Source: an uncultured delta proteobacterium | GTDB lineage: Bacteria; Desulfobacterota; Binatia; UBA9968 | Direction: 5' to 3' | Length of the DNA: 64,000 bases | Assembly (NCBI GenBank): GCA_963816145.1 | Contig: CAWFJP010000023.1 | Span: 11,290-75,289 of the forward strand | Shown here: positions 9,145-51,649 of the stretch, in pieces | How positions within the stretch are numbered: the first letter of the stretch is position 1 | Layout: each line of letters opens with the position of its first letter | Translations under genes and position numbers: made by a program | Notes under the pieces: model-generated | What the model was told of the DNA's origin: nothing | What the model saw: the letters and a program-made list of their open reading frames with translations, nothing else | The model's database searches: none

Positions 9145-9164
9145 TATTGGCCTTTAGTCCAATA
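9145..9164. promoter_or_regulatory. Candidate operator, 20-bp palindrome TATTGGCC-TTTA-GTCCAATA
   Basis: One arm mismatch. Lies ~110 bp upstream of the DUF2092-like gene start (9037). Confidence 0.45.
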
Positions 9165-30604: not shown

Positions 30605-30624
30605 TATTGGACCTTAGTCCAATA
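30605..30624. promoter_or_regulatory. Candidate operator, TATTGGAC-CTTA-GTCCAATA (perfect arms)
   Basis: Lies 130-185 bp upstream of the sigma-54 activator gene. Confidence 0.5.
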
Positions 30625-30796: not shown

Positions 30797-30816
30797 TATT
30801 GGACCTTGATCCAATG
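30797..30816. promoter_or_regulatory. Candidate operator variant, TATTGGAC-CTTG-ATCCAATG
   Basis: Two arm mismatches. Lies 2 bp downstream of the REC gene stop. Confidence 0.35.
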
Positions 30817-34526: not shown

Positions 34527-34563
34527 CTTGTCGGCGCTTAAATCATTTTTTTGAAACTTAACG

Positions 34564-36076: not shown

Positions 36077-36079
36077 TTC

Positions 36080-37459
36080 TTAGAACACCATCTGCATGCG
36101 CAGACCGAGGATCGTTGCCGTGCCGATGCTTTTCCGGCTCGATATAAAGGGGATTCCGATGGGGCCGGGAGCGGTGCCGATGGTGATTTTCTCTTTCTGT
36201 GCCCCTCGGACAACTTGGATGTCCGGTGTCAATTGTAGCCACGGCGTTATTGCGAAATTGTAAAATGCCTCAAATCCGTACTCATCACGCAACAATTTAG
36301 TGTTCTGAAACGGACGGCGGAGGTCAGGATTGTTGACATCCATGTAATAGAAACCGAAGCCGTAGCGATCGTCTGCGCGAGTAGGAATAACACCTTTACC
36401 ACCGATCCCCAGGCTGTAGAAAAAGTGCATGAAGTTAGGATTGCCATCCGACGCGCCGAAGCGACCGAAGACACCGATTCCTTCACCGGAGCCTTTTTTC
36501 GGCTCATAAAAATACTGGTCGAAGTTGTAATGGATGTTCCAAGAACCTTTCTTCCCCTCGAAGGCTCCGTTCTCGAACATGAAGCGCGCGTTCTGATCGA
36601 TCGAAGTGAATGTCCGGTTGGAAAAAAGCGCCCCGAAAAGCTGGTGCCCGGTAAGCCCAAAAAAATCGGTCCTCAAACGCCCCTCGCCGATAAACGTCAA
36701 GTTGTTGCCGTCAAGATCTTCGAAGCCGCTGGTGCTGGCTTTTCCGGTGGCTGAAAGAACCATAAAACTCACGATCGCTTGAGTTGGATCTTTCGTTGGC
36801 AACGCGATGAATCCGGTGCCCAACGTCGAATAGGGCACCGTCGTCAGCAACACCGGATTGATATTAAACGCGAGGTTCATGAATTGGGTATCGCCCTTGC
36901 CGTGGGCAAACTCATTCATGTCGCCGCTATTGCTCGTGATCGTAGCGTACTTGCCGATCGTCAAGCCGAAATAAGGGGAAAGAAATTGGCTGAAGTTTAA
37001 CGCCGGCAGGTTAAAGTTGTCACCGGCGGGGGTGGGATAAAACTGGCTGCTGTTGACCGGCATGAGCGCGCCGGACCTGCCGTTGATCGATTTGAGCAAA
37101 CTATCGGCCGGTATGAAATTGCCCTCGGCTTCGACGGTGAGAAATCCGCCGGGCCACAAGCCAAGTTTTCCGGTGTCGAGCAGGAGATTGATGTCACCGC
37201 GCCCGCCGCCGTACTGCCAGCCGGTGTCCTTGCCGCCATGGACGATGCCTTGGGCGGCCTGGGTCAGGCTCATATCGAGGGTCACGCCCTTGGCGGCCAA
37301 CTCGTTGCGCAGGCCGAACCAGTCGCCGCTGAGCGTCGAGCGCGACCAGATATCCCCTGAGTACGGGGTTGGTTCCGGCGCCTCGCCAGCGTGAAGTTGC
37401 GCGCCCAGCACAAAACTTAGCGCCAAGGCAAAGGCTACGACTATTCTCGCTAAAATCAT
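36080..37459 (-). CDS. Outer-membrane porin, OprB (carbohydrate-selective) family-like
   Basis: 459 aa with a signal peptide. The N-terminal motif SGDWFGLRNELAAKGVTLD is typical of OprB-type porins. Alternating beta-strand pattern and a C-terminal aromatic residue (RMQMVF). Confidence 0.65.
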   Translation of the reverse strand: MILARIVVAFALALSFVLGAQLHAGEAPEPTPYSGDIWSRSTLSGDWFGLRNELAAKGVTLDMSLTQAAQGIVHGGKDTGWQYGGGRGDINLLLDTGKLGLWPGGFLTVEAEGNFIPADSLLKSINGRSGALMPVNSSQFYPTPAGDNFNLPALNFSQFLSPYFGLTIGKYATITSNSGDMNEFAHGKGDTQFMNLAFNINPVLLTTVPYSTLGTGFIALPTKDPTQAIVSFMVLSATGKASTSGFEDLDGNNLTFIGEGRLRTDFFGLTGHQLFGALFSNRTFTSIDQNARFMFENGAFEGKKGSWNIHYNFDQYFYEPKKGSGEGIGVFGRFGASDGNPNFMHFFYSLGIGGKGVIPTRADDRYGFGFYYMDVNNPDLRRPFQNTKLLRDEYGFEAFYNFAITPWLQLTPDIQVVRGAQKEKITIGTAPGPIGIPFISSRKSIGTATILGLRMQMVF

Positions 37460-37604
37460 CTCGTTTTCTCCAAACCTATTTTCATCTTTCAGTTCCGCCG
37501 CAGCGATTTTGTCTCCATGGCCATCGGTTTTTCGCCTTTGCCGTCAACCCGATTGCCGCCTTGCTCGCGAACGATGGCATCGCGACTTATCCGTGAATCT
37601 GATT

Positions 37605-38240
37605 TCACGGCCGATTCATCTCCTGGAACTGGCGCTGGTTTTGCGTCGCGATATCCTCAAGTTGTTCATAATTGAGCGCCAGCGTTTCGCAGTTCGAGAT
37701 CAGCGTCGGCCAATCAACGTTGGCGCTCGCAACCAGCGCCAGATTAGTCGCCAGCGACTTTCGCACACTGCCGTCCTGATCCCAAAACGAGCCGAACGAG
37801 TTCGAGAAAGTATTGATGATATAATTGACGAATGACTGCATGCCTTTGAGCCCGCTTTCGATATTTACCTGGCCCGCTTTCCGGTCGCCTTGCTTTGCCT
37901 GGGTAAGTCCGAGGTATAAGCGCGCGAGATTATCCCCTTTATGCTGCGCCAGGGCTTGCTGCAGCGTCGCCTGGGCTGCGGGAAGCTGGCCGGTAAGGTA
38001 TTGAGCTCTGCCGAGATAACTCAAAACCCCTTCGCGGAGCTCAGTGCCATAGATATAGTTCGGGCTGATTTGCGCAGCGCTCTCAAAGTCGCCCAACGCG
38101 GCTTGAGTATTACCCATAAACAGCGCTTGCCTGCCGCGGGTGATATCGCTGCCACCTTGAAAACTCGCACCGCAACCCGACAGTAGGGCAACCAATAAGA
38201 CTATCGACAGATGACCCAGAACACTCATTGTTCGCTTCAT
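37605..38240 (-). CDS. TPR-containing lipoprotein
   Basis: 211 aa with lipobox ALLSGCGA. TPR-like helices (ALGDFESAAQISPNY..., YLGRAQYLTGQLPAAQATLQQAL). Confidence 0.65.
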   Translation of the reverse strand: MKRTMSVLGHLSIVLLVALLSGCGASFQGGSDITRGRQALFMGNTQAALGDFESAAQISPNYIYGTELREGVLSYLGRAQYLTGQLPAAQATLQQALAQHKGDNLARLYLGLTQAKQGDRKAGQVNIESGLKGMQSFVNYIINTFSNSFGSFWDQDGSVRKSLATNLALVASANVDWPTLISNCETLALNYEQLEDIATQNQRQFQEMNRP

Positions 38241-38499
38241 GACTTCACCTCTTCTCCAGGTTTTGTTTCCAGGTATCGGTTGTCCGAGGCCAAAGCGCCC
38301 GCACCGGGCGCATTCTGCCTCCGGCTACTGAAGCCTGGAAACCGTCAATATTTGTTATCCCTCACCTCGCCGTCATTTCGGACACAGGAACTGTATCTGA
38401 AAGCGCAAAAATCGTCAGCCGGCTCATGCTCAACTGCCTTGCCGAAACCTCGACCTTGTTTCGACTCAATTCCATATACCGAAAAATCGATTATTCCCC

Positions 38500-38519
38500 T
38501 ATTGGACTTTAGTCCAATA
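38500..38519. promoter_or_regulatory. Candidate operator, TATTGGAC-TTTA-GTCCAATA (perfect arms)
   Basis: Lies 260 bp upstream of the TPR-lipoprotein/porin gene pair. Confidence 0.5.
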
Positions 38520-38926
38520 CCCAGCGGCGCGGCAAAATGTCGTATCCGCATGCCGCCGTCGGTCGGGTGAATACTCTGCTCCGTAAGAAGTTTGACGGAC
38601 TTGGCAATGGGTATGGGTGCTACGCAGAAAGCTTCGGGGAATCGACCCGCAGGGATTGAACAACTCTCGGCTACCAGCCGATGGAGTTTGAAAGTATCGG
38701 CTTTAAGTCGAATTTCGCTTGATCGTCATGCCCGCGAAAGCCTTCATCCAGGTTCTCGCCTGACCATTCCGAAAGAGACCTCGACGCTCGGACGAGGTCG
38801 AGCACCGGGATCGCATTCTCAAACGAACCTTCTGGCCGTGTCACTTTTCTGCTGGAGGCAACCATGGAAACAGCGATTTTAAGAAAACTCTTCGTTATAT
38901 CCCACTACACCTGTGTGGCACCAAAT

Positions 38927-39047
38927 GTCGAGGGGCTAGTGACAAATGGAAAACCAGAGACACGAAAAACGGCGAACAAAATCTGGCATTTCCCCTCGAC
39001 ACACCAATCCCGACACCTTTTCCACTCCTCCCTCGACACTCTCTCGC
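38927..39047 (+). repeat. Family-A element, strongly degenerate
   Basis: gtcgaggggctagtgac...ggaaaaccagagacacgaaaaacgg...cccctcgacacaccaatcccgacacc...ccctcgacactctctcgc. Confidence 0.45.
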
Positions 39048-39054
39048 GCACCGA

Positions 39055-39795
39055 TCAGTAAACCATTCGCGCTTTGCGCACCTGATCGGCGCGAATCCAT
39101 CCCTGCTTGGCGAAAAACTCCGAGAGATAGCGCGCGACCTGATCGCCGCTCGTTGCGGCCATTCGAGCGACATCCGATTTGTAGGTCTTCACGCCTGAGA
39201 CCGCGGCGTTGGCGACCACCATGCCTGCGGTTACGCCGCCGCTAACGATCGCTCCGGCGCCGAGCATGGGCGCCGCGCCGGGCATCTTGCCACTGTCGGA
39301 TTGAGTGGTGAAAGCGAGCAGCTTGCGACCGTCTGGCCCCTGATAAACTTGAACCTGACTCTCCACCGTGGAGGCTCCGTTGCCGAAGCCAACCGCCAAA
39401 CGACGCAGCGGATTGCCTTCGTCGACGGTCATAAACTGACCGTCGATCAGCAGATCGGTCCCCCCGGCCTTGGTGTCGCGGCCGACCCGCTCGACGACGA
39501 ATCCGAGCGGCTTCAAGGCGTCGACAATTTCCTCGGCCAAAGCATCTTTCACTTCCCGCGCCAGAACACGCTCCCGCTCGGAAGCGTCTTTGATGGTCGG
39601 CTGTTGGCGCATGATGCCCTGGTACTCCTTAACTTCGCCCTCGCTCACGGCGAAGTCGAGAACAAGTATACGGCTAGGCCGCGGCAGATTGGTATCAGCA
39701 ACGCGCGCGGCACGGCGAATACCCGTCTGAGCGCAGGCCGCGGTTAAACACAATAGGAGTACGCCGAAATAACCACCCGTTCGGTTCGCTAACAT
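39055..39795 (-). CDS. Lipoprotein (DUF4410-like, tentative)
   Basis: 246 aa with lipobox LTAACAQ. A Gly/Ala-rich segment (GAAPMLGAGAIVSGGVTAGMVVANAAVSG) follows. Family name is from memory. Confidence 0.55.
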   Translation of the reverse strand: MLANRTGGYFGVLLLCLTAACAQTGIRRAARVADTNLPRPSRILVLDFAVSEGEVKEYQGIMRQQPTIKDASERERVLAREVKDALAEEIVDALKPLGFVVERVGRDTKAGGTDLLIDGQFMTVDEGNPLRRLAVGFGNGASTVESQVQVYQGPDGRKLLAFTTQSDSGKMPGAAPMLGAGAIVSGGVTAGMVVANAAVSGVKTYKSDVARMAATSGDQVARYLSEFFAKQGWIRADQVRKARMVY

Positions 39796-39881
39796 ACAAC
39801 ACCTCCTCCTCTTGTTTAACGGGTCATCGCGTAATCGAGTGGGCGCTGACTTAATGGCAAATTACTCTCCCATGGCCGGTT

Positions 39882-39978
39882 CCTCCCTTTCGCAAAGGGA
39901 GGTTAGGAGGGATTTTTCATGGCTTGAAAGATCGTCTTCTGCACAAAATCCCCCCAACCCCCCTTTTCTAAAGGGGGG
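39882..39978. repeat. Family-C triple-hairpin element, intergenic copy
   Basis: cctccctttcgcaaagggagg-ttaggagggattttt...caaaatcccccc-aaccccccttttctaaagggggg. Confidence 0.8.
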
Positions 39979-40130
39979 TGAAACCTACAAGAACAGCATT
40001 TCTCAACAAATTTCACCCACTCGATTACGTGAAGAGCCTGTTTAACTTCCTCAGAGCGACGAACCTACGGCATCAAAATGCCACAAAATGGTTAGCTGAA
40101 GAAACAAACTCTGCTTGAGCGACGTCAGCG

Positions 40131-40856
40131 CTAACGCGCTTTGGCGGCCGGGCTCGGCGTCCCGGCTGTTCCGCCGACACCGATCGCGTCTCGGTAGACC
40201 ATTATTTCGACCCGGCGGTTTTTCGCCCGCCCGGCCTCGGTCTTGTTATCAGCCACCGGGACGCGCTCGCCGTAGCCCACCGCCATCACCCGGCTCGGGT
40301 CGACATCTCTTTCCGCGATCAGAAACGCGGCGATGCTTTCGGCGCGCCGCTTTGACAGCTCATAATTGTAGGTTGGCGCGCCGGAGGCATCGGTGTGGCC
40401 GGCTATTAGATAGACCAAATTGCCGCCGTCATCGGCCTGCCCCTTAACGTCGCTCAGGAAGCTGTCGATGTCTTTCTTCGCCTGGTCACTGAACTGAGCT
40501 GAGTTGGACGCGAACTGCGGCCCAGCGGTGAAATTCAACACCATTTTTCGTTCGGGCTTGAGCCGCTGCAAGCTCTCTAACGCAAGATTCGCCTTGGCGT
40601 CGGTTTGGCCGACGCGGGCTTCGAGATCGGCGATCTGTTTGGCCATGGTGTTCACCCGGGCGTCGACTTGGGTGACCCTGCCGTCCGTCTTAGTCACATT
40701 CGCCTCTGTGTCCGAAAGTCGCTTATTGATCGGGAACAGTTGCTCGTTGGTCCAGCTTTGCACCCAGTCTTGGGTCGCTAGACAGCCCGAGGCGCCCAAC
40801 ATTGCGAAAACACTAAACAGCGGCAGTCCTCGCCGCAAGAAATTGGAATTATGCAC
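40131..40856 (-). CDS. OmpA-family lipoprotein with N-terminal coiled-coil repeats
   Basis: The GTG at 40856 has GAGGAG 7 nt upstream and gives a signal peptide with lipobox MLGASGC. Coiled-coil repeats (DARVNTMAKQIADLEARVGQTDAKAN) precede the OmpA_C core: GHTDASGAPTYNYELSKRRAESIAAFL...NRRVEIMVY. The track ORF starts at a TTG at 40874. Confidence 0.85.
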   Translation of the reverse strand: MHNSNFLRRGLPLFSVFAMLGASGCLATQDWVQSWTNEQLFPINKRLSDTEANVTKTDGRVTQVDARVNTMAKQIADLEARVGQTDAKANLALESLQRLKPERKMVLNFTAGPQFASNSAQFSDQAKKDIDSFLSDVKGQADDGGNLVYLIAGHTDASGAPTYNYELSKRRAESIAAFLIAERDVDPSRVMAVGYGERVPVADNKTEAGRAKNRRVEIMVYRDAIGVGGTAGTPSPAAKAR

Positions 40857-40964
40857 AAAGAATCTCCTCTTCAATTAAATTTTTTCGATCCACTCTTGAA
40901 ATTGTCGTTATATCTTTCCACAAGCGCCGCGCCGTAACCGATTGCACCAGCGGCACTACAGCAC

Positions 40965-41097
40965 TCTTCCCTCGCCACTTCCATCTTTACAGGAGGCAAC
41001 AGAGAAAGCAGAGAGAGTCTTAAAAATTTCTCCGTGATCTCCGTTTGCTCCTGTTAAATCCCTCGACAACCGACACTCGACCCTCTTCACTCGTCAC
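40965..41097 (+). repeat. Family-A complete element
   Basis: tacaggaggcaacagagaaagcagagagag (40988-41017) / ctccgtgatctccgtttgctcctgtt (41030-41055) / ccctcgacaaccgacactcgaccctcttcactcgtcac. Confidence 0.8.
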
Positions 41098-41588
41098 TTC
41101 ACCAGCGGCACACCCTGGGCGATGTCGTACCGGATGACGGCGCGAATCTTGTTCTCGATCTGCAGGTAACGCGCGACTTTGACCATCGGCAGCGCTTTAG
41201 CGAGCTTGGGCGCGAAGGTGCTCTTGAGATTGACCTCCGCCTGTTCGATGGCGTTGGCCTCCTCGATCAGCTTCTTTGCCTTGTCGTCGGTCAGCGACTT
41301 ACTACGGAAGTCAGCGGCGTAGATCTCTAGCACATTAACGATGCGCTGATTGATCTTGCGCAATTCCTTTTGATATTCGTCATAGATCGGCCAGAAGTTC
41401 TTCGCCTCCGACTCGGTCAATTCCATGTTGCTCGCCACCAGCAGCTTTTTGTCCGCTTTGATCTTGTCACGCAGGATCTGCATGTTGTCCGCTGGCTTGT
41501 CCTGCGCCGCCAAATTCATCGATGGGAGCCCCAACAGCACGATCGCCACTGCAACGCGGATTGTTTTTTTCAATAAATCGATTCTCAT
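41094..41588 (-). CDS. Periplasmic all-helical protein, paralog 1 (Spy/CpxP LTXXQ-like, tentative)
   Basis: 164 aa with a signal peptide. ~55% identical by eye to ORF 42437-42928. Shared motif: ELTESEAKNFWP(I/V)Y(D/E)(E/D)YQ ... YLQIEN. Confidence 0.65.
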   Translation of the reverse strand: MRIDLLKKTIRVAVAIVLLGLPSMNLAAQDKPADNMQILRDKIKADKKLLVASNMELTESEAKNFWPIYDEYQKELRKINQRIVNVLEIYAADFRSKSLTDDKAKKLIEEANAIEQAEVNLKSTFAPKLAKALPMVKVARYLQIENKIRAVIRYDIAQGVPLVK

Positions 41589-41621
41589 TGCTTCTCTCCT
41601 TCAGGTTTCATTTGTCAGCAA

Positions 41622-41710
41622 CCGAGGGGCGAGTGTCGGGTGTCGAGGCGAATCCCACTCGACCCTCGTCACTCGTCACCCTCTTTTTTCTCACTCGACC
41701 CTCGACACTT
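41622..41710 (+). repeat. Family-A outer arms without inner hairpin
   Basis: ggggcgagtgtcgggtgtcgaggcg...cactcgaccctcgtcactcgtcaccc...ctcactcgaccctcgacactt. Confidence 0.65.
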
Positions 41711-41721
41711 GTGTCGGCCGC

Positions 41722-42303
41722 CTACGGATTTGGATTGATCTTGGTAATCTTGGTTCCCTGGATGCCCATGCCGCCCATCAGTCCCTTTTGGTCAAAGATG
41801 AATGCATACACACCTTTTTGCAGGGTCGTGGTCGATAAGTTCTTGCCGAATCCTTCGTCCAACACCACCAGGCTAGGCCCGACCCCCAATTCGAAGCCGG
41901 CAGTGTTGTCGAGATACTGCAACGACGCATTATCCATAAAAAACAGCACGTAGCCGTAGGCTTGAATGCCGGCTTGAAATCCATACGACACCGCGAGCGA
42001 ACGGTAATAGGCAACGGTCTTGCCGCGTTTGCGTAAAGCGCCGTCGCCGAATTGGCCGGCGAAGATGAATCCGCCTTTGACGATGCTCGGGAAGACCAAC
42101 ACTCCGACCGCCTTGTCCGCCAATGCCTTGGCGGCCGGATAGTTTTTAGTGAGTTTCGCCACCGTCGCCCTCACGTCACGGTCGATCTCGCTCGCACTCG
42201 CCGCCTGCGCCGCAGCCGGACTCAAGACATGGAAGGTCAACAGCATCAATGCCAGCCCGACGATTAAGTTGGGCATCTTGGTATTTCGGTTATTTGCTCT
42301 CAT
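41722..42303 (-). CDS. SYLF (Ysc84/DUF500) lipid-binding domain protein, secreted
   Basis: 193 aa with a signal peptide. VLVFPSIVKGGFIFAGQFGDGAL...SYGFQAGIQAYGYVLFF...GFELGVGPSLVV matches the SYLF domain pattern. Confidence 0.8.
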   Translation of the reverse strand: MRANNRNTKMPNLIVGLALMLLTFHVLSPAAAQAASASEIDRDVRATVAKLTKNYPAAKALADKAVGVLVFPSIVKGGFIFAGQFGDGALRKRGKTVAYYRSLAVSYGFQAGIQAYGYVLFFMDNASLQYLDNTAGFELGVGPSLVVLDEGFGKNLSTTTLQKGVYAFIFDQKGLMGGMGIQGTKITKINPNP

Positions 42304-42351
42304 TCTGTGCTCCTGTCATCAAATTAGAAGGTAATCCCGCTCGCCATTTTT

Positions 42352-42433
42352 TACTGGAGGAAACCGAGGTTTTCGAAAATGCTCCGTTAACTCCGTTTGC
42401 TTCCGATTAGACTCCCTCGACCCTCGACCCTGA
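42352..42433 (+). repeat. Family-A element, short left arm
   Basis: tactggaggaaaccgagg / loop / ctccgttaactccgtttgcttccgatt / ctccctcgaccctcgaccc. Confidence 0.7.
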
Positions 42434-42436
42434 TCC

Positions 42437-42928
42437 CTACTTCGCCAACGGCACCGTGGTCGCGAGATCATATTTCAGCAGCACGCGGTACTCGTTTTCG
42501 ATCTGCAGATAACGCGCGGCCTTCTTGGCCGGCAGCGCTTTCATCACCTTGGGGATGAAGGCGGTGCGTTGCTTGACGTCGTCCTGTTCAAGGGCGATCC
42601 ACTCGTCGAGCAGCTTCTTGGCTTTGTCGTCGGTGAGCGACTTGCTGCGGTAGTCCGCGGCGTAGCTCTTCAACAGCGCGCCGAGACGCTCATTGATTTT
42701 CTGCAAATCGTTTTGGTAGTCCTCGTACACCGGCCAGAAGTTTTTGGCTTCCGATTCGGTCAACTCCATATATTTGGAGACAATCAATTTTTTGTCCGCC
42801 TTGAGTTTCTCGTGGACGATTTCCAGATTGTTGGCAGGCTTATCCTGCGACCGCGCAGCTATCGGCGCACTTCCGAGCGCAGCCACGAATAAAACCGCCA
42901 AAAACTTTGTCCCTGTCTTGTTCTTCAT
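42437..42928 (-). CDS. Periplasmic all-helical protein, paralog 2 (Spy/CpxP LTXXQ-like, tentative)
   Basis: The ATG at 42928 has GGGAGGG 7 nt upstream. Signal peptide MKNKTGTKFLAVLFVAALGSAPIAA. Paralog of 41094-41588. Confidence 0.65.
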   Translation of the reverse strand: MKNKTGTKFLAVLFVAALGSAPIAARSQDKPANNLEIVHEKLKADKKLIVSKYMELTESEAKNFWPVYEDYQNDLQKINERLGALLKSYAADYRSKSLTDDKAKKLLDEWIALEQDDVKQRTAFIPKVMKALPAKKAARYLQIENEYRVLLKYDLATTVPLAK

Positions 42929-42956
42929 CTCGACCCTCCCTTTTTCGATGTTTATA

Positions 42957-43379
42957 TCACGAATCAATATTTCCCTTGACAGCTTGGCGTCCCGGCGCCG
43001 AGATCAAGTAGCCGAGCATCACCGCCGGGACGATCGCCCAAAGCAGTGCCCGCACCGGGGTGTCGCCTTGAATTATGACACTCAGCACCAGCAAAAAATT
43101 GACGATCGCCAAGCAGATTCCCAACCACCGCGCCCAATGCCGCTGCAGCAATACGCCGCATGCAAAAGCGACAAATAAGAGCGCTAGAACCGCCACCAGC
43201 ATGCCCCTGCCGATGGCGATCAGTCCAAGCAACGGCAGTAACAGCAGGCCCTGCCCCATCATATCACTGCCGACGTCGAACCACTGTAGCGCACGCAGAA
43301 CAGCAGCGATGCTTTGAAGCACCGCCAGCACGGCAACGACCTTCAAGCCCAATGGATTATTTGGCAGTACCGATACCAT
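42957..43379 (-). CDS. Four-TM membrane protein, unknown function
   Basis: The start is taken at the ATG at 43379 (MVSVLPNNPLGLKVVAVLAVL...). The upstream 25 codons of the track ORF translate a repeat element. Confidence 0.5.
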   Translation of the reverse strand: MVSVLPNNPLGLKVVAVLAVLQSIAAVLRALQWFDVGSDMMGQGLLLLPLLGLIAIGRGMLVAVLALLFVAFACGVLLQRHWARWLGICLAIVNFLLVLSVIIQGDTPVRALLWAIVPAVMLGYLISAPGRQAVKGNIDS

Positions 43380-43394
43380 GGTGTCCCTAAAGAA

Positions 43395-43470
43395 GTGTCG
43401 GGTGTCGAGTGAAAAAAGCGCCCGACCCCACGTCTCTCGCCGACCCCTCGACACTCGACACTCGTCCCTC
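43395..43470 (+). repeat. Family-A outer arms without inner hairpin
   Basis: gtgtcgggtgtcgagtg...cccctcgacactcgacactcgtccctc. Confidence 0.6.
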
Positions 43471-43502
43471 TTATCTCCCCCGACCCCCGTGCCTCGTTGC
43501 CG

Positions 43503-44474
43503 CTACGGCTTCACTTCCGTCCAGCTTTTATCAGGGTCGAACTCTTTCATCGCCTGGGCGGCTGAGCGGGTATTAGCACCCAAATCCTTTTGAAAAACTT
43601 TGCCTTCGTGGTTGACCGTGAACGTCATCACGCCGGAATTGCCGTACTCGGCGGGAAAGGCGACGAGCGCAAAGCCGCCCATCATGTTGCCATTAACGAC
43701 GTAGCTGTAAGCCCCGCCAGTAGCGTTCTTTCCCTGACCCTCGAGGATCTTGTAATAGTAGCCGTAATAAGGCGCCGCGGTTTGCCCGGCGCCCGGACCT
43801 TGAGCGGAATAGCCGGCGCCTTGAGCCTGCGCCCAGAGCGGCCCCAGCGGACTCTGCTCTTCGCCGCTCTTTGCTTCCCAGTACAGCCCATTTTTCTTAC
43901 CGGCCTCGCTGCGGATGCGGCGCGCGTATTCGAGAATCTTGTCGTCGTCGCGATCCTTCATCGCATACTCGCGCTGGGCATCGACGAACGTCAATGCCAC
44001 TTGAATCGCGTTCAATTCGTTGGTGCCGATACGGCGGTTGAGAATTTCCTCGCGGCCCTTGTCGGTGTCGAATACCCAACTATCCGCTTTCTTGACGAGC
44101 GGAATCGGGAATGGCCAGGCATTGTTGCCGATCGTGATGATCCGGCTATCGCCTTCGCTAACGATAGTGTTCTTCTCGTTATAGGCCGCCAAGAACCGCT
44201 CACGCCAATGCTTGTCCGCAACCGGATCGCCGGAAAACATCAGATCTTTGGCTTGCGCGCCGAAGATCGCCAAGAGCTCTTTGTCATCATTACTTTTGGC
44301 GGCGGCCACCGCGGCCTTGACTGCCTCTTCGGGGCTAGCGAATGTCTTTTGTTTTGCCGGCGTAGCGGCCACGGCAAACTGGCCTATCGTGAGCGTCAAA
44401 ATGATCACCGCCGCGAACCCGGCCCAATACCAATTCGTCGGTTCTTTTGGATCTGCGCTTAGATTGTGCAGCAT
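43503..44474 (-). CDS. DUF2950-family secreted protein
   Basis: 323 aa. FASPEEAVKAAVAAAKSNDDKELLAIFG...NAWPFPIPLVK...YYGYYYKIL...GGFALVAFPAEYGNSGVMTFTVNHEG matches my memory of DUF2950. Confidence 0.8.
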   Translation of the reverse strand: MLHNLSADPKEPTNWYWAGFAAVIILTLTIGQFAVAATPAKQKTFASPEEAVKAAVAAAKSNDDKELLAIFGAQAKDLMFSGDPVADKHWRERFLAAYNEKNTIVSEGDSRIITIGNNAWPFPIPLVKKADSWVFDTDKGREEILNRRIGTNELNAIQVALTFVDAQREYAMKDRDDDKILEYARRIRSEAGKKNGLYWEAKSGEEQSPLGPLWAQAQGAGYSAQGPGAGQTAAPYYGYYYKILEGQGKNATGGAYSYVVNGNMMGGFALVAFPAEYGNSGVMTFTVNHEGKVFQKDLGANTRSAAQAMKEFDPDKSWTEVKP

Positions 44475-44499
44475 CGCTTCTTTCTCCCTAACCTACGGC

Positions 44500-45903
44500 T
44501 CACCGTGAAGTTCTGAGCAAAGCCAAACCATCAGCGGCGTCCGCCACCGCCACCGCCGCCTCTGGCACCACCGCCACTCCGTGCAGCGCCACCACTGCTC
44601 GTGCGGCTCGCGCTGCCGCGTTGGCTGGAGCTTTTGGCGGAACTGCCACCGCGGTCGATGCCTTCAAACGCGCCGCCGCGGCTGCTCGAAGCACCAAGGT
44701 TGGCGTTCGACTGGCTCGCGCCGCCGCGGCTGCCGGCAGTCGCCGAAGTTCTAGCCTGTTCGCCGCCACGCGCCTGCTGGGTTCTGGTTGCGGCGCTCGT
44801 TGCTGCCGGCTGGTCGATTGTTGCTGCGGCTTGCTGCGCTTGCTGTCCGGTGTTTTGTTGCTGGGCCTGCTGACCGGCTGATTGCTGACGAGCTTGTTGA
44901 GCTTGCTGTCCGGTTTGTTGTTGCTGCGCTTGCTGCGCTCGTTGTTGCGCCTTTGCTGTTCCGCTGGGGTCAAAGCACTGCCGGTGTAACCGCGATACGC
45001 CTGGCGCGCCTGAACCTGTTGGCTCGGCGACGCCTGGTTATATTTCTGCGCCACCGCTTGATTGCCGTAGGGAACTCCCTTGCGATTGGCCGCATTGTGC
45101 TGCCAATTACCCTGCGCGTTTGCCGGTAGCTGATTTGCGTATACGTTGCGGTTGATGTTGGTGTTGATATTGACGTTCTGGTTGTAATTGTAGTGAACGT
45201 GTCCGTTGTTCCAGTTAGGGCTGCCCCATGCGTAGCCCCAGGCCGCGCCTAGCGCGACCGCGCTGCCAAACCAAAATGCCGACCTTGCCGCGACATATCC
45301 TGGCGGATAGTAGTAATACGGTGGATAGGCCGGATAGGGCCAGGTGCCATAGACTACGGTTGGATTGTAGGCGGGAACATAGACGACCTGCGGACTGGCA
45401 GGCTCGATGACAATGATCTTATCCTGAACGATCACCTTTTGCTCTTGCGTCGTTTTAAGATTACCCGCCGCTTGCGCCTTGGCACGCAGACTCTGGATGG
45501 TATCCATGACGGGCTTTTCCCCTGCAAGAAACGCGTCGCCCAGTTTTTGCGTCCAATCGAGCTTCTCGTTCATCATGGTCAACACCTGGGGGAAATTGAC
45601 CAGCGACTTCACGCTCGGGTCCCAGCTCTGCGCTTCCAGCGCTTTGGTCAAGGCGTCGCCTTTGAGATTTGCGTTCTGTTTGGCGAATCGGGCGGCGTTA
45701 ACCACATCGAGCGGATACGTCGACGCCATCAGGATCTGCGCGATCAATGAATCAGGATAGAGCGCGATCGGCGCGAGCAACTGATCGAGCTCTTCCTGCT
45801 TAACCACCGGGGCATTAGCCGCATCCTGCGCCCATGTCCCCGGAGGTACAGCCAACAGCGTAACCAAATAACATGAAAGCGCAATTTTTATGACTTGCCT
45901 CAT
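44500..45903 (-). CDS. DUF3300-family secreted protein (C-terminal low-complexity tail probably frameshifted)
   Basis: Signal peptide plus the hallmark LLAPIALYPDSLIAQILMASTYPLDVVNAARF. After ~codon 318 (near 44950-44958), the -1 frame gives a typical Gln-rich then Gly/Arg-rich tail ending GGGARGGGGGGRR with a stop at 44531-44533. Confidence 0.85.
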   Translation of the reverse strand: MRQVIKIALSCYLVTLLAVPPGTWAQDAANAPVVKQEELDQLLAPIALYPDSLIAQILMASTYPLDVVNAARFAKQNANLKGDALTKALEAQSWDPSVKSLVNFPQVLTMMNEKLDWTQKLGDAFLAGEKPVMDTIQSLRAKAQAAGNLKTTQEQKVIVQDKIIVIEPASPQVVYVPAYNPTVVYGTWPYPAYPPYYYYPPGYVAARSAFWFGSAVALGAAWGYAWGSPNWNNGHVHYNYNQNVNINTNINRNVYANQLPANAQGNWQHNAANRKGVPYGNQAVAQKYNQASPSQQVQARQAYRGYTGSALTPAEQQRRNNERSKRSNNKPDSKLNKLVSNQPVSRPSNKTPDSKRSKPQQQSTSRQQRAPQPEPSRRVAANRLELRRLPAAAAARASRTPTLVLRAAAAARLKASTAVAVPPKAPANAAARAARAVVALHGVAVVPEAAVAVADAADGLALLRTSR

Positions 45904-46019
45904 TATGCTCTCTTCGCTTTTACTCGTTCACTTAGTGAATATGACGCCGCTATACCAGTTTTCTGGTGACTCCCCAGGCGCACGACACTCAATTTCGCGC
46001 CAGACACTTTGCCTTGGGC

Positions 46020-46424
46020 CTATGGTTTATCGCCACCCGCCACTTCGCTCGCCAGCGCCGCGCGCAATGTTTTAATCAATAACTCATCGTCGAAGGGCTT
46101 GCGCAAAAAGGCCATCGCTCCGGATGCCAACGCCCGCTCGCGCACGCCGACTTCGTCATGCGCCGTGATAAAGATAACCGGAATGGGGTTGCCGCCGCGC
46201 GCGAGCCGTTCCTGGGTTTCCAGACCGTTCATGCCCGGCATTTGCACATCCAAAATGGCGCAGTCAGCTTGAAACGACGGCATCGCGTCGATACAGTCCA
46301 AAAACTCTTGCCCCGACGCGAAGGTCTCAGCGTTCATGCCGAGGGAGCGAACGAGTCTTTTCAAAGCTCGACGGACCGAAACGTCATCATCGACGATCGC
46401 GATCAATGGCAGGCCTTTGGTCAT
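46020..46424 (-). CDS. Single-domain response regulator (REC only)
   Basis: 134 aa. IAIVDDDVSVRRAL...AILDVQMPGMNGLE...VIFITAHDE...FLRKP. Confidence 0.85.
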   Translation of the reverse strand: MTKGLPLIAIVDDDVSVRRALKRLVRSLGMNAETFASGQEFLDCIDAMPSFQADCAILDVQMPGMNGLETQERLARGGNPIPVIFITAHDEVGVRERALASGAMAFLRKPFDDELLIKTLRAALASEVAGGDKP

Positions 46425-46515
46425 TAAATTTTGTTGCGCAAGACATTCGAGGACAAACCAGATCCCGAACAGCTTTCGCTAACGATCATCTATATAGGAG
46501 AGCAGAAGGGCTGTA

Positions 46516-46535
46516 TATTGGACCTTGGTCCAACA
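46516..46535. promoter_or_regulatory. Candidate operator, TATTGGAC-CTTG-GTCCAACA
   Basis: One arm mismatch. Lies 92 bp upstream of the REC gene that heads the DUF3300/DUF2950 gene string, between it and the FixJ-like gene. Confidence 0.45.
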
Positions 46536-46626
46536 CAGAAAAGGCGGCCAAAACTCATCGCAAGTGAACGTTGGTCAAAATTAGGCGACAACGGAGAGGC
46601 CGACGATCATGCGCACCGGCACCCGT

Positions 46627-47268
46627 TCACCTACGAGCGCTTGCGGCTGTCGGCTGTTTCTGCGCTGGGATACCGACTTTTTCTGCCAGCCGTACCAGCT
46701 CCGCAATCGAATCCACTGCCATCTTTTCCATCACCCGGGAGCGATGAACTTTGATGGTTTTCTCGACTGTGCCGAGCTCCCATGCGATTTGCTTGTTTAA
46801 CATTCCGGTGACCACCAGGGCCATGACTTCGCGCTCGCGCGGCGTGAGCGACTCCAGACGCCGGCGGATGTCGACCAGTTGGGCGGCCTCGGCACGCTGC
46901 CCGGCCGCCCGTGCCAGCGCCTGCTCGATGGCGGGCAAGAGAGTTTCTTGGCAAACCGGCTTGGGCAGGAAATCCACCGCCCCGGCTTTCATCGCCTGCA
47001 CGCCCATCGGGATATCGCCGTACCCGGTGATGAAGATAATCGGAATGGCTATTTTCGCCGCTTGCAACGCCTCCTGAAGCTCCAAGCCGTTGACACCGGG
47101 CATACGCACATCGAGGACAAGACAGGCGACCCCCGCGGTTTCAGGCTTGGACTCGAGAAACTGCCGGGCCGATGCGAACGGCGCGACCTCATAGCCCGCC
47201 GCGCGAATCAGCCGCGCCAGCGCTTTGCGCACCGAGCTATCGTCGTCGACCAAAAACACCGTCGTCAT
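46627..47268 (-). CDS. FixJ/NarL-family response regulator (REC + LuxR-type HTH)
   Basis: 213 aa. VFLVDDDSSVRKAL...LVLDVRMPGVNGLE...IIFITGYGDIPM...LTPREREVMALVVTGMLNKQIAWELGTVEKTIKVHRSRVMEKM. Overlaps the kinase stop (ATGA). Confidence 0.9.
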   Translation of the reverse strand: MTTVFLVDDDSSVRKALARLIRAAGYEVAPFASARQFLESKPETAGVACLVLDVRMPGVNGLELQEALQAAKIAIPIIFITGYGDIPMGVQAMKAGAVDFLPKPVCQETLLPAIEQALARAAGQRAEAAQLVDIRRRLESLTPREREVMALVVTGMLNKQIAWELGTVEKTIKVHRSRVMEKMAVDSIAELVRLAEKVGIPAQKQPTAASARR

Positions 47269-50200
47269 AAAGGATGCTCAAGCCGCCGCTCGGCCGCGGC
47301 CATTTCCGGCAACAATAAATGGAACGTTGCGCCGCGATCCCGGTTATTCTCCGCCCACAAGCGCCCGCCGTGCCGTTCAACGATCGCCCGGCTGATCGAC
47401 AATCCCATTCCCAGCCCCTCTCTTTTGGTCGTGAAGAACGGCTGAAAGATCGTGTCCAGCATATCGCTCGTCAAGCCTGAGCCGCGATCGCCGACCGATA
47501 CCTCGACCATGCCGGCGCTGCCGGAGTCGACCCGCACCGTCACCTGGCGCTCGTCGGTTGGGCATTCTTTCATCGCATCGAACGCATTGAGAAATAGATT
47601 GAGCATGACCTGTTGCAACTGAACCCGATCACCACGGACCGGTGCGACGCTCTCACCGGCTCGGCAATCCACCTTCACGTTGCGCAAAATCGCATCGCTA
47701 TGCACCAACGACACGACATCACCGACAACCGCCGTTAGATCCAAGCGCGCCAACGTGAGCTCTTCCTTGCGCACAAGCGACCGGATTCTGCGAAGGATCT
47801 CGCTGGCCCGATTGTCATCCTCGACGATATCATTGAGAATTTCCCGCACCTCGTCAAGGTTGAAGGCTTTGTTCGTGAGAAATCGTTGCGCCGCCTGGGC
47901 GTTACTCAAAATCGCCGTGAGCGGCTGATTCAACTCGTGCGCTAAGGAAGCTGCCAATTCACCCATCAAAGAGACACGCGAGACATGCGCCAACTCATCG
48001 CGTTGTTGCCGCAGTTCGGTTTCCGCCTGCTTGCGGCTGGTGATGTCGGTCGACGCGCCCAAGATCTGATTCGCAACGCCATCTTTGCCAACGATGGGCC
48101 GTTTAACGGTCTGCAACCAACGAATTCTCCCCTGCGCGTCGGTTAAATGCTCCTCCGCGATGAAGAGCTCTTGGAGTTTGTCGATCACCTCCAGGTCCAT
48201 GCGGTGGAAGTACTCGACTTCATCGCGGTTCGGATTGAAATCCGCATCGGTCTTGCCGATCAGCCCATCCACCGTCGTACCGTAAGCGTCGGCGACAGCC
48301 TGATTCACCAGCGTGAACCGTCCATCGCGATCCTTGGCAAAAATAAAATTCGGGTCGATGTCGATGACTTGACGCAAAAACGCACGCTCCTTTTCCAACG
48401 CCTCCTCGGCTTGCTTGCGCGCGCTGATGTCGACGATCGACGTTAGTACAAGAAGGCCTTCCTGGCTGTGGATCGGCGTCAGTCCGATTTCAACCAAAAC
48501 CTCGCTACCGTCTCTGCGCCGCGCGCGCAGATCCCGTCCCGGACCAAGCATCCGCGCCTGCGGCGCCGCGGCGAAGCGCGCGCGATGAGCCAGGTGGTTG
48601 TCGCGAAAACGTTCCGGTATGAGAATCTCCACCGACTGCCCGATCATCTCCTCGCGCGAGTAGCCGAACAGGATCTCGCTCTGCTGGTTCACAAGCACGA
48701 TCTGTCCCTGAGCATTTACCATGACGGTCGCATTGGATGAAGCCTCGACAGCCAGCCGAAACCTTTCATCGCCTCGCTTGATCTCACTGAGATCGGTGGC
48801 CGTACCGATGTAGCCGAGAAAGGTTCCGTCGGCTTCGAAGCGCGGCACGCCGTGGCCAAGCACCCAGCAATACTCTCCATCGCTTCTCCTCAGGCGGTAT
48901 TCCATAGAATATTCGTGCCGAGCGTCGAAGGACGTCCTGTAGAGGGTGAGACTGTGATCTAGGTCGTCCGGATTAACGCCTTCGGTCCAACCATTGCCGA
49001 GTTCCTGCTCTAGTGTCCGGCCGGTGAAGTCGAGCCAGCCTTTGTTGAAAAAGGTGCAAAGCTTGTCCGTGCCCGACATCCAAATCATGACCGGCGCTGC
49101 GTTGGCCACGGTGCGGAACCGTTCCTCGCTCTCGCGTATCGCCTGCTCGCTCCGTTTGCGCTCGGTAACGTCAAGCATCAGGCCGCGAAGCTGGAGCGGC
49201 TCGCCGGCCAAATGGTTACAATTGACGATGTCGTGCACCCAGACGACCTCCCCCGACGATCTGATCATGCGATACTCGAATTCGAAATCGTCAGCCCTCT
49301 GGCTCATGGTCAAACAGGTGTCGATCGCCCGTTGCCGATCATCCGGGTGAATATGAGAAGTCCAAAAATCTTTCTCGTACCATTGCTCGAGCGGATAACC
49401 GAGCAGCTTGACCGCCTGTGGAGTGACATAGGTAAACCTCCAACTCTCAACATCGGCCTGCCATAGAACCGCCGCCGTGTTTTCCACCAACCGTCGAAAA
49501 TTCTCCTCGCTCTCGCGCAGCACCGCTTCCATCTTTTTGCGTTCGGTGATGTCTAACAAGACACCCACCCTGTGCACGCCACGGCCGCCCACTACGTTGA
49601 CGGTCGATCCTTTCGCTAACACCCAGCGCTCCCTGCCGTCGGCCAGTCGGGTGCGAAACTCGCCTTCAAACGGCGCGTTGGCTTGCTGGGCGCGCTCGAC
49701 TTCGGCTACGATTCGCTCTTTGTCATCAGGATGAATGCGGCTAAGTATGTCGCCCACCCGGACAGCTTCATTCGGGCCGATACCAAGCTCGGCGCGTAGC
49801 ACCGGGTTAACCCAGACATCGTTTCCGTTGAGACCGCGCGCCCATAAGCCCAACCTGCCGGCGCGGGTCGCCATCTCCAGTAATTCCTGGTTATCCCGAA
49901 GCTCTTTTTCAGCCCGGCGCCGATTCAATCGATTGAAAACCAAGCCGGAAATCAAAGCGGCTTGCAGCAAGAAAACCCCCAGCGCAATAACGATATACCC
50001 GCGATATTGATCCCAAATTGAAGTCGGCCTGAAGTGAACCCTACTGTTTTGCGGCAGGCGACTTTCGCCGATACGCCAGCGCTGCAACGCGCGCCAGTCG
50101 AAGATCGGCACTCCCGTGCTCCGGACTTCCAACCGCAAAGACTTGGGCTCGGCACCCCGCAGAATCAGTTCGCCCAGTTCACCGGCGCGCTTTCCCAGCG

Positions 50201-51077
50201 CCAGGGTATCTGCAACCGAACCGCCGACTGCGCCCGTGCCGAGCATGGGGTCTGACATGACATAAACGGGAGCATTGGACACCTTGGCGATCGCCTGGGC
50301 CGCCTGCGACGAAATGACTGCCCGGCCAGCGCCATCGCGAAACATCCGGGTAAAAAGAATTGCGGTTCTGGGCGGCAAAGCACTTACGCCCTGTAGAATG
50401 GCGTCCATCGAGCGATCGGCCCAGACCTCGACCTCGACTCTTCCGCCAAACGAGCGCGCAACCTTCGTCGCTCGGGCCATGACTTGACGATCCACCTCGG
50501 CGACTCCGCCGATGAGCAAGATGCGCTCAATTTCCGGCTGCAACCGGAGAATCAATTCGATGGTTCCGCCGGGGTCGGAGCGTTGAACGGTGCCGGCTAA
50601 GTACTGGCTAACTTTCGACCCGGACAGTTCCTCCTCGCTCAATCCGACGGCGACCACAGGAGTGCCTGGGAAGATATCGTCAAGCAGTTGCTGGGCGACG
50701 ACCAAGTTGCCGACAAAAATCAGCACGATCACATCGGGAACATCGTCAACGTATTTATTGCGCAAGTAATCGCGGAAAAGCGAATGAAAGGTTTTGCTCG
50801 GAAAGCGAACGATATCGAGATACTCGGAATAAAGCTCAAGCTCGCCGGCGTGCAGCTTGCGCAATTCGTCAATCGCGCTTTGCTCAACAAGCGGAAAGCC
50901 CGGCGAGAACCGGCTGCCGGTCGACAGCACCAACACTCGTTTGGCACGCGAGGAATCTGCGCCGAGGAGGCGCCCGGCCGCGGCAACGCCGGCAAGCACA
51001 CACAGGAGACAAATAAACCAGCGCCTTAGGAATGGGCCTGGGGGGTGCTTGGTAAGGATAGTGTCGGAAGGTGCCAC
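47265..51077 (-). CDS. Sensor histidine kinase: periplasmic PBP-like domain, TM, five PAS/PAC units, HisKA, HATPase_c
   Basis: 1270 aa. The periplasmic domain and first PAS are homologous to those of the sigma-54 activator at 27354-30476 (e.g. DWRALQRWRIGESRLPQNSRVHFRPTSIWDQYRGY versus [35 protein letters not shown]). H-box LAASLAHELNQPLTAI. N and G boxes (FLNAFDAM, GDRGSGL, GLGMGLSISR). Confidence 0.9.
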   Translation of the reverse strand: MAPSDTILTKHPPGPFLRRWFICLLCVLAGVAAAGRLLGADSSRAKRVLVLSTGSRFSPGFPLVEQSAIDELRKLHAGELELYSEYLDIVRFPSKTFHSLFRDYLRNKYVDDVPDVIVLIFVGNLVVAQQLLDDIFPGTPVVAVGLSEEELSGSKVSQYLAGTVQRSDPGGTIELILRLQPEIERILLIGGVAEVDRQVMARATKVARSFGGRVEVEVWADRSMDAILQGVSALPPRTAILFTRMFRDGAGRAVISSQAAQAIAKVSNAPVYVMSDPMLGTGAVGGSVADTLALGKRAGELGELILRGAEPKSLRLEVRSTGVPIFDWRALQRWRIGESRLPQNSRVHFRPTSIWDQYRGYIVIALGVFLLQAALISGLVFNRLNRRRAEKELRDNQELLEMATRAGRLGLWARGLNGNDVWVNPVLRAELGIGPNEAVRVGDILSRIHPDDKERIVAEVERAQQANAPFEGEFRTRLADGRERWVLAKGSTVNVVGGRGVHRVGVLLDITERKKMEAVLRESEENFRRLVENTAAVLWQADVESWRFTYVTPQAVKLLGYPLEQWYEKDFWTSHIHPDDRQRAIDTCLTMSQRADDFEFEYRMIRSSGEVVWVHDIVNCNHLAGEPLQLRGLMLDVTERKRSEQAIRESEERFRTVANAAPVMIWMSGTDKLCTFFNKGWLDFTGRTLEQELGNGWTEGVNPDDLDHSLTLYRTSFDARHEYSMEYRLRRSDGEYCWVLGHGVPRFEADGTFLGYIGTATDLSEIKRGDERFRLAVEASSNATVMVNAQGQIVLVNQQSEILFGYSREEMIGQSVEILIPERFRDNHLAHRARFAAAPQARMLGPGRDLRARRRDGSEVLVEIGLTPIHSQEGLLVLTSIVDISARKQAEEALEKERAFLRQVIDIDPNFIFAKDRDGRFTLVNQAVADAYGTTVDGLIGKTDADFNPNRDEVEYFHRMDLEVIDKLQELFIAEEHLTDAQGRIRWLQTVKRPIVGKDGVANQILGASTDITSRKQAETELRQQRDELAHVSRVSLMGELAASLAHELNQPLTAILSNAQAAQRFLTNKAFNLDEVREILNDIVEDDNRASEILRRIRSLVRKEELTLARLDLTAVVGDVVSLVHSDAILRNVKVDCRAGESVAPVRGDRVQLQQVMLNLFLNAFDAMKECPTDERQVTVRVDSGSAGMVEVSVGDRGSGLTSDMLDTIFQPFFTTKREGLGMGLSISRAIVERHGGRLWAENNRDRGATFHLLLPEMAAAERRLEHPL

Positions 51078-51148
51078 GGCACCGTGACTTTACGAACACA
51101 GGCCACGGGAATCAAGCGCGGCGCGCCTCGCGCAACGTTATCTTAATG

Positions 51149-51556
51149 TTAGAAGACGCGATCGTTGGTTTCTTCCACCAACCAATCGTTGGCCCTCTTT
51201 TCCTCGTAGAAAACCCCAACGTCAACCCCCAGCGCCGAATTGGGCAACCTTAACAGCCGCAATAGACCGAATTGCTCTTGATGCCGGGGTGTCACCAGCG
51301 CAAGTTTTAAGTTGCTACCGTCGGTCCACGGAAAGCTGGCTAGCGCACACTTCAAATCGACAAGTTCGTCGAGACCTAAATCGCACGTAGTATCCTGGAC
51401 ATCGATCAAGATTTTACAAGCGTTGAGCGGCCTAGTGAGGTCGACAACTTCCTCCATCAGCCGCAGAAAGGAATCTCTATTAATAAGTCCGCGGGCGACG
51501 ATAACTAGACAATGTCCATTATTTTGCCAGTAAAACAATTTGAGCTGATGATTCAT
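51149..51556 (-). CDS. Hypothetical protein (STAS-like fold possible)
   Basis: The ATG at 51556 is preferred over the TTG at 51637. No recognised motif. Divergent from the AraC-family gene. Confidence 0.4.
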   Translation of the reverse strand: MNHQLKLFYWQNNGHCLVIVARGLINRDSFLRLMEEVVDLTRPLNACKILIDVQDTTCDLGLDELVDLKCALASFPWTDGSNLKLALVTPRHQEQFGLLRLLRLPNSALGVDVGVFYEEKRANDWLVEETNDRVF

Positions 51557-51649
51557 GCGTACTCGTTTAATGTCTAGCCGCCTGGTTGTCTTGACTTTCC
51601 GTGACACTCGATTGACAGTTGGCGCCCGATTCGGCAAAGCAATAGATCT

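Follow-up and report, generated by a model that had tools for sequence, protein, structure and literature searches.

What holds together a run of thirteen co-directional genes that joins a two-component system to a series of envelope proteins, and to which signal might these genes respond? The question is raised by the minus strand at positions 36080-51077 of the window analysed here, that is, of a whole 64,000-nucleotide stretch (contig C23:11290-75289) from a 7.8 Mb genome of 31 contigs, whose relatives are soil metagenome-assembled genomes labelled Candidatus Binatia or 'uncultured delta proteobacterium'. Using open reading frame (ORF) translation together with Pfam and NCBIfam profile scans, we found 13 ORFs on this strand, and all 13 genes and domains named in the original prediction, which was made from the DNA letters alone, were present. 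The functional unit reaches past these coordinates. We consider it probable that a FixL/FixJ-type pair activates genes for periplasmic and outer-membrane proteins through an 18-bp box, ATTGGACYAARGTCCAAT, and that the cluster consists of three putative transcription units of a larger two-component regulon with at least 13 promoters on three contigs. No description of this box or regulon was found in the searched literature.

Two palindromes had already been pointed out within the cluster. Both are present far above chance and proved to be copies of one site that is tied to the adjacent two-component system. Box 1 (GTTGGACCAAGGTCCAAT in gene sense; 46517..46534, minus strand) is located 92 nt upstream of the start of a gene encoding a protein with a receiver (REC) domain only, and box 2 (ATTGGACTAAAGTCCAAT in gene sense; 38501..38518, minus strand) 260 nt upstream of a gene for a tetratricopeptide repeat (TPR) lipoprotein. 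Genome-wide, the exact motif TTGGAC-N4-GTCCAA occurs in 8 copies, and every other spacing from 0 to 40 yielded only 0-2 copies. Allowing up to one mismatch to ATTGGACYAARGTCCAAT, we detected 13 genomic sites, compared to a mean of 0.07 for 30 scrambled palindromes. All 13 are found on contigs C23, C24 and C9, which together make up 4.6% of the genome and constitute an island rich in sulfatase genes. Each of the 13 lies upstream of a gene, at a distance of 54-321 nt, and none inside a convincing ORF, while the box centre reads YAAR in gene sense at 13/13 sites.

Both boxes of the cluster are followed 20 nt downstream by a -10-like hexamer, namely TATATA behind box 1 (46491..46496, minus strand) and GGTATA behind box 2 (38475-38480, minus strand). 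For a phasing test, 36 non-redundant sites from relatives were oriented only by their central AA. The resulting consensus, ATTGGACYAARGTCCAAT-ATAC-N13-TTC-GnTAgA, comprises a GnTAgA -10-like hexamer at a fixed distance of 20 nt from the box (after the box, G at +21 in 78%, T at +23 in 81% and A at +24 in 89% of the sites), and no conserved -35-like element was found among the 36 aligned sites. Read in this way, the box centre would be near -41.5 and the box would span about -50 to -33, in place of a -35 element. That is, the box would be a class II activator site inside the promoter.

Which protein would read this site? Among the 31 genus genomes, 24 contained the box, with up to 20 copies each (0-1 for a reversed-pattern control). 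Here and in at least ten relatives, one copy is located about 100 bp downstream of the regulator gene. It was detected between the regulator and REC-only genes in four same-genus genomes (G003, G004, G018, G019), in the further loci L036, L038, L042, L052 and L055, and in L075, a locus on a 2.27-Mb contig of a Verrucomicrobiae genome. Within the genus, each of the 14 genomes with a regulator ortholog carries boxes, and none of the eight in which consensus boxes are missing has the ortholog (Fisher p = 0.003). That the adjacent regulator reads the box is best supported by the two copies of the module, each with a box of its own. The paralogous module (C24:16500-19817) comprises a 652-aa kinase, a FixJ-like regulator (48% identical), a variant box, CTATTGTACTGAAGTACAATAG, and a REC-only gene. 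This variant is a perfect palindrome with TTGTAC half-sites, located at the same distance behind its regulator gene and with a -10-like TATCCT at +20, and the recognition helix differs between the two paralogous regulators (ERTIKAHRAS versus EKTIKVHRSR). We infer that the regulator of the cluster binds the box, and that a modular 'kinase-regulator-box-REC-only' design exists in two paralogous copies with diverged box specificity. A second TGTAC-N4-GTACA site is present at C24:16522.

The kinase gene (47265..51077, minus strand) encodes 1270 aa with a signal anchor, a periplasmic domain of about 330 aa that resembles periplasmic binding proteins (PBP-like; a weak Pfam match to ABC_sub_bind, E 2e-4), a transmembrane (TM) segment, several PAS domains, HisKA and HATPase (all Pfam). 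In a PDB sequence search, residues 1005-1258 were closest to the FixL core, which was matched in chimeric structures (E 4.7e-55). One PAS domain (residues 766-891) aligns to the haem domains of E. coli DosP and FixL at about E 1e-13; it has a histidine at the proximal-ligand position (H77/H194; RFRDNH), and both this His and the Arg that comes next are conserved in the genus orthologs. With its haem-PAS signature, the kinase looks FixL-like and does not resemble a classical envelope-stress sensor. The regulator gene (46627..47268, minus strand), whose start overlaps the kinase stop by 4 bp, encodes a REC domain and a GerE helix-turn-helix domain (Pfam). In the PDB, its product matched StyR (1yio, 3.5e-58) and FixJ (5xso, 9.3e-46) over the full length, and DevR at 1.1e-14. 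A gene for a sigma-54 enhancer-binding protein (27354..30476, minus strand; Pfam) is located behind two boxes of its own (30606..30623 and 30798..30815, minus strand; genome box scan), and the N-terminal ~585 aa of its product (periplasmic domain, TM segment and first PAS) are homologous to those of the kinase (33% identity, E 5e-85, BLASTP). Since the kinase combines a periplasmic PBP-like domain with a haem-PAS signature, the system probably responds to a periplasmic ligand as well as to oxygen or redox state, and it probably has a second regulatory tier behind it. The sigma-54 activator gene is followed downstream by an ABM-like gene (26644-26970), a small ORF and a gene for a 575-aa sulfatase (24385-26112).

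Taken together, we propose the following course of events. Unit 1 would consist of the sensor kinase and the FixJ/StyR-type regulator. Unit 2 would be transcribed from box 1 and comprise the genes for the REC-only protein, DUF3300, DUF2950, a 4-TM protein, helical protein A, a SYLF protein, helical protein B, an OmpA-like lipoprotein and a DUF4410 lipoprotein, whereas unit 3 would start from box 2 with the TPR lipoprotein and the OprB porin. Upon input from one periplasmic signal and from oxygen or redox state, the kinase would phosphorylate the regulator at Asp53. A regulator dimer on ATTGGACYAARGTCCAAT, centred at about -41.5, would then recruit RNA polymerase to GnTAgA promoters without a -35 element by class II activation. 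The REC-only protein, as the first induced product, would probably serve as phosphate sink or kinase inhibitor in a FixT-like negative feedback. The same box would drive at least 11 other promoters on the three contigs, including that of the sigma-54 activator with the same sensor module, and the output may be a rebuilt periplasm and outer membrane, with a porin, peptidoglycan- and lipid-binding proteins, lipid-trafficking systems and sulfatases.

Parts of this scheme are familiar from known systems. In its proposed mode of action, it most resembles FixL-FixJ with a FixT-like receiver feedback as well as StyR-type class II activation. FixL is the closest solved relative of the kinase core, StyR and FixJ are those of the regulator, and one PAS domain here has a His at the position of the haem ligand of FixL and DosP. 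A REC-only gene as first induced target, as proposed here, is likewise part of the FixL-FixJ-FixT system: in Caulobacter, FixT is a receiver protein that is induced by the FixLJ system and inhibits FixL (PMC7078487). But the kinase of the cluster adds the PBP-like domain and several further PAS domains to the FixL layout, and its REC-only partner has two Cys instead of the four-Cys Fe-S site of FixT. Box sequence and output genes also differ from FixLJ systems, and the boxed genes that we examined included none for a respiratory oxidase or for haem biosynthesis. We found no FixK-type intermediate here, and direct action of the regulator seems to apply to all promoters. In the PDB, the regulator is matched best by StyR, but StyS-StyR and TodS-TodT control single catabolic operons, their kinases are cytoplasmic double-sensor proteins and the box sequence differs. 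The StyR box is a 6-4-6 palindrome. The StyR abstract gives an activating site at about -40. The mycobacterial dormancy system DosS/DosT-DosR, in turn, is a haem-sensor-driven regulon of a GerE-type regulator, as we propose for this system, where haem is predicted. The DosR box, TTSGGGACTWWAGTCCCSAA, has an inner GGAC-N4-GTCC core like the box described here. However, the regulator is far closer to FixJ and StyR than to DosR/DevR, the kinase has PAS domains and, in the Pfam scan, no GAF domain such as in DosS/DosT, and the target genes differ.

Beyond the cluster, the boxes precede a varied set of genes. Within the window, a box with one mismatch (9146..9163, minus strand) is located 54 nt upstream of a DUF2092 gene (8252-9091), which is followed on the same strand by PqiA (6713-7357) and MlaD/PqiB-like (3957-5630) genes. 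At other sites, the first gene behind a box encodes a PlsC-type acyltransferase, a resistance-nodulation-division (RND) membrane-fusion protein, a GH63 fragment or MlaC, and the MlaC gene is followed by that of a phospholipase D (PLD)-like lipoprotein. Further boxes directly precede the gene of a 791-aa sulfatase and that of an outer membrane protein (OMP)-like product, the latter followed by a 509-aa sulfatase gene. A LOG-like protein gene is also found behind a box, and the co-directional gene of a GH63 hydrolase comes further downstream; another first gene encodes a putative phosphoketolase, named from its N-terminal sequence only. The suggested envelope module holds in part: Pqi/MCE, MlaC, PLD, PlsC, the RND pump and OprB fit it, but the regulon, with its 13 or more promoters, extends beyond the cluster and also includes sulfatases and carbohydrate enzymes. 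In G018, 17 of the 20 boxes are found within about 140 kb of one 1.06-Mb contig, and boxes precede orthologs of the REC-only/562-aa/DUF3300/DUF2950 genes, OprB, the 509-aa sulfatase, GH63, PLD and a Pqi/MCE-like gene; thus, the regulon appears conserved and physically clustered. In both G004 and G018, a box is located immediately before the orthologous OprB gene.

Two observations concern the neighbourhood of these genes. A box at C24:23402 is located upstream of a 158-aa ORF, which is a second copy of the C-terminal portion of a 910-aa GH63 hydrolase encoded 8 kb away; the duplicate region (C24:21610-23312) and the hydrolase gene (C24:30231-32963) look like the outcome of a partial duplication of gene and promoter. 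At 14062-16464 of the window, within the island, a multihaem cytochrome c of 800 aa is encoded that ends in TPR repeats, and its gene has no box upstream.

The sulfatases open another view of the output, namely that the regulon mainly serves to obtain esterified nutrients, such as sulfate esters, from soil organic matter, with porins, binding proteins and the DUF3300-DUF2950 pair serving uptake and periplasmic processing instead of envelope maintenance and with the periplasmic sensor domain binding the substrate. Nine of the 12 sulfatase-family genes of the genome are found on the three box-bearing contigs (p about 2e-10). In addition to the two boxed sulfatase loci, the box-controlled sigma-54 activator adjoins another sulfatase gene, and co-directional sulfatase-family genes, which form one sequence cluster (median 788 aa), are located no more than 7 kb away from DUF2950 in 18 of 78 loci, drawn from several phyla. 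But two of the sulfatases lack a signal peptide, no sulfur-assimilation or transporter gene was tied to a box, and the regulon also comprises lipid-trafficking and carbohydrate genes. We regard such a scavenging role as possible, though on the doubtful side.

Several points weigh against two-component activation through the box as proposed above. Haem binding by PAS residues 766-891 is a prediction from an alignment. A sigma-70 promoter and terminator scan of positions 36000-51700 revealed no enrichment over shuffled background, and unit 2 contains gaps of 130-335 bp, occupied by hairpin repeats, in which further promoters or terminators could be located. Contamination of the bin was estimated at 6.7%, yet relatives hold the same island in Mb-size contigs. 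Finally, five genus genomes, one of them 99% complete, have 3-13 boxes and no regulator homolog at E <= 1e-40, so that another binder is conceivable there, or the island is unevenly binned.

These five genomes would be readily accommodated if the box were bound by another factor, either of the CRP/FNR/FixK type or another GerE protein, and two-component control were indirect or absent. Read as TTGGA-N6-TCCAA, the box has a CRP-like layout; CRP/FNR/FixK-type proteins also act from -41.5, and in FixLJ systems most regulon promoters are bound by FixK and not by FixJ. We considered a CRP/FNR-type binder, but no such gene was found on the island contigs: the four HTH_Crp_2 matches of the genome are on C31, C1 and C30, none of them near a box. 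Two further points against a separate binder are the constant position of the box about 100 bp behind the regulator gene, in at least ten genomes and one other phylum, and the variant box at the same place behind the paralogous regulator. We consider such a binder unlikely.

The palindromes had been called operators in the original prediction, and a repressor operator would mean that the regulator, or its unphosphorylated form, blocks the promoters until the signal relieves them. The box would cover the -35 position, and its occupancy could occlude RNA polymerase. However, as no -35-like element is conserved, the promoters look activator-dependent, and the closest characterised regulators, FixJ and StyR, are activators. 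Box position and phasing with the -10 hexamer correspond to activator geometry inside the promoter, and repression appears quite improbable.

The gene order of the cluster is kept nearly whole, including orientation, in G003 (without the TPR gene) and in G019 (with it). Other relatives have rearranged subsets, with the order partly kept in G004 and several short contigs and with varying gene content behind DUF2950. The expected linkage was thus recovered in same-genus genomes, where the genes are linked and co-directional, but the extended set is essentially confined to Binatia-like loci and the full set to the genus; universal occurrence applies to the DUF3300-DUF2950 pairing only. Chance juxtaposition of independent envelope genes, with the repeats as mobile elements without regulatory role, would agree with this variable gene content and with the mobile hairpin repeats that populate the intergenic gaps, but is very hard to believe given the kept order and orientation and a box that, unlike a mobile element, is phased with the -10 hexamer and oriented toward genes.

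Turning to the single genes of units 2 and 3 (all on the minus strand), the REC-only gene (46020..46424; Pfam E 2.5e-28) is the first behind box 1, and its product has an apparently complete set of acidic pocket, phospho-acceptor Asp, Thr and Lys, as read by eye. It is followed by genes for secreted DUF3300 (44500..45903; Pfam E 3e-93, 311.7 bits) and DUF2950 (43503..44474; Pfam E 2.3e-113, 378.3 bits) proteins, both covering their models end to end. In the DUF3300 ORF, the ~140 codons at the 3' end are read in the wrong frame, with a switch near 44950-44958. The alternative frame leads to a Gln-rich and then Gly/Arg-rich tail (...SQRGSASR...GGGGGGGRR, then the stop), and this ending is common to 14/14 compared orthologs; the true stop is probably at 44531-44533, and the frameshift could be an assembly error or a real lesion. 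Next are a small 4-TM membrane protein without family (42957..43454; orthologs in 9 loci), whose true start is probably internal, near Met26, and the periplasmic helical protein A (42437..42928, in the ORF 42437-42967; no Pfam family above threshold). The secreted SYLF (Ysc84) domain protein (41722..42303; Pfam 33.4 bits, cutoff 25.1) has a signal peptide without Cys and scored 146.6 bits with the NCBIfam BPSL1445 family (NF049970), below the equivalog cutoff of 200. Helical protein B (41094..41588), a paralog of helical protein A, was identified from its translation, DNA repeat D1 and the alignment of both proteins. Unit 2 would end with a lipoprotein comprising a coiled-coil and an OmpA-like peptidoglycan-binding domain (PF00691; 40131..40874; Pfam E 3e-19, 69.6 bits; NCBIfam matches) and with the DUF4410 lipoprotein (39055..39795; Pfam E 1.5e-18, 67.4 bits, cutoff 26), for which a PDB sequence search returned nothing useful. 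In unit 3, the TPR lipoprotein (37605..38240) was recognised by the lipobox in its translation and TPR matches that were sub-threshold in Pfam, and the porin (36080..37459) belongs to the OprB family (PF04966; Pfam E 1.6e-35, 123.7 bits). Signal peptides, lipoboxes (LLSGC, LTAAC, GASGC) or TM segments had been claimed for every product and were seen in the translations, with the exception of the two response regulators, which are cytoplasmic.

The cluster is flanked by two further genes on the same strand. A 162-aa protein without family (51149..51637) is encoded directly upstream of the kinase gene, also in G003 and G019. On the other side, a 562-aa secreted protein without Pfam domain (32547..34235) is encoded, whose gene is found between the REC-only and DUF3300 genes in several relatives. 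Its family comprises 602 matched proteins, and the source names among the matches listed were Binatia only. A spaced box variant upstream of this gene was examined and not counted: positions ~34500-34530 contain degenerate half-sites only, and no other spacing is enriched genome-wide. An Rfam scan of positions 30000-52000 matched no family.

DUF3300 and DUF2950 had been named as frequent neighbours, and this was borne out by a neighbourhood survey of 79 loci from many phyla, in which DUF3300 was followed by DUF2950 in 67 of the 78 loci counted for pair order. The pairing itself was already published in 2015: the two secreted proteins (PF11737, PF11453) were described as universally co-localised and nodule-induced in rhizobia, and no informative neighbours were found (PMC4653623). 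The DUF3300 family includes E. coli YacH, whose gene is under CpxR control and influences survival of protamine (PMC9600279). The gene order is the same here, but the pair belongs to a delimited putative regulon with a known cis element, and sulfatase genes are its recurrent neighbours. Our search with the pair gave at least 8,000 matches, all at E <= 1e-10. In distant phyla, further recurrent partners include the kinase/regulator/REC-only trio (16-18 loci), helical homologs (14) and the OMP-like protein (8), and PqiB/PqiC-like genes and sigma-54 activators also recur beside the pair. A second DUF3300-DUF2950 pair (C24:69491-72000) has no box nearby, and its DUF2950 gene is split into two frames by a frameshift.

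Structure prediction gave a confident AlphaFold2 model of DUF2950 with two alpha+beta halves (pLDDT 87.5). Foldseek against the PDB revealed only a faint minor-pilin/NTF2-like resemblance for this model (best E 0.018, TM-score < 0.2), and a PDB sequence search with DUF2950 yielded nothing useful. For DUF3300, residues 1-300 were modelled with a pLDDT of 74.7; residues 40-170, which exceed 90, form a helical bundle with a beta-hairpin, and Foldseek found nothing better than E 3.6 in the PDB. Speculatively, and as a suggestion that we ourselves find rather doubtful, DUF3300, DUF2950, the large sulfatases and the small OMP-like protein might constitute a periplasmic system, so far unrecognised, for the processing of sulfated (or similarly esterified) substrates from the envelope or the environment. 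Such a system would span at least five phylum-level labels and, in Binatia and at least one Verrucomicrobiae genome, would be controlled by an oxygen/redox-sensing FixL-like kinase via a dedicated promoter box. For a very widespread orphan pair whose known links have been nodule induction and, through E. coli YacH, Cpx regulation, the locus itself offers a testable regulon: it provides a cis element and candidates for the regulator, the signal and the co-regulated partners (sulfatases, lipid-trafficking systems, a porin, SYLF and OmpA-like proteins). It is also a first regulon reconstruction for the uncultured class Binatia.

Helical proteins A and B are 54% identical and have two LT[ED]xx[AK] motifs. 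Like the LTXXQ chaperones Spy, CpxP and ZraP they are small, secreted and all-helical, but they reach no family threshold of that clan. Against Pfam, nothing in the helical family scored above threshold, with Metal_resist sub-threshold in 6 of 17 members (best E 0.003), and a profile search of PDB sequences with the helical proteins retrieved no CpxP, Spy or ZraP. With only these sub-threshold Pfam matches behind it, the description 'chaperone-like' was not supported.

The intergenic regions contain two kinds of repeats. A hairpin repeat of about 65 nt, AACAGGAGCAAACGGAG...CTCCTGT, was found at 35782-36033, 41006-41061, 42369-42401 and 34700-34760. It is also present in G019 and missing from the same intergenic gap in G003 and G004, which points to a mobile insertion resembling miniature inverted-repeat transposable or repetitive extragenic palindromic (REP) elements. 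The other kind are heptamer arrays, (G[TG]GTCGAG)n in mRNA sense, right behind the stop codons of many genes. Inverted arrays of this GTCGAG-type form a REP-like hairpin at 41623..41717 (minus strand), with a folding energy of -47 kcal/mol, and sister arrays are located at 36034-36078, 39016-39041, 41048-41099, 42413-42438 and 43386-43470. Of the tandem-heptamer arrays in the genome, 26/28 are on C23, C24 and C9, the contigs that hold all boxes. These arrays look like island-specific REP-like elements, and the one behind the stop codon of helical protein A was also found in five relatives.

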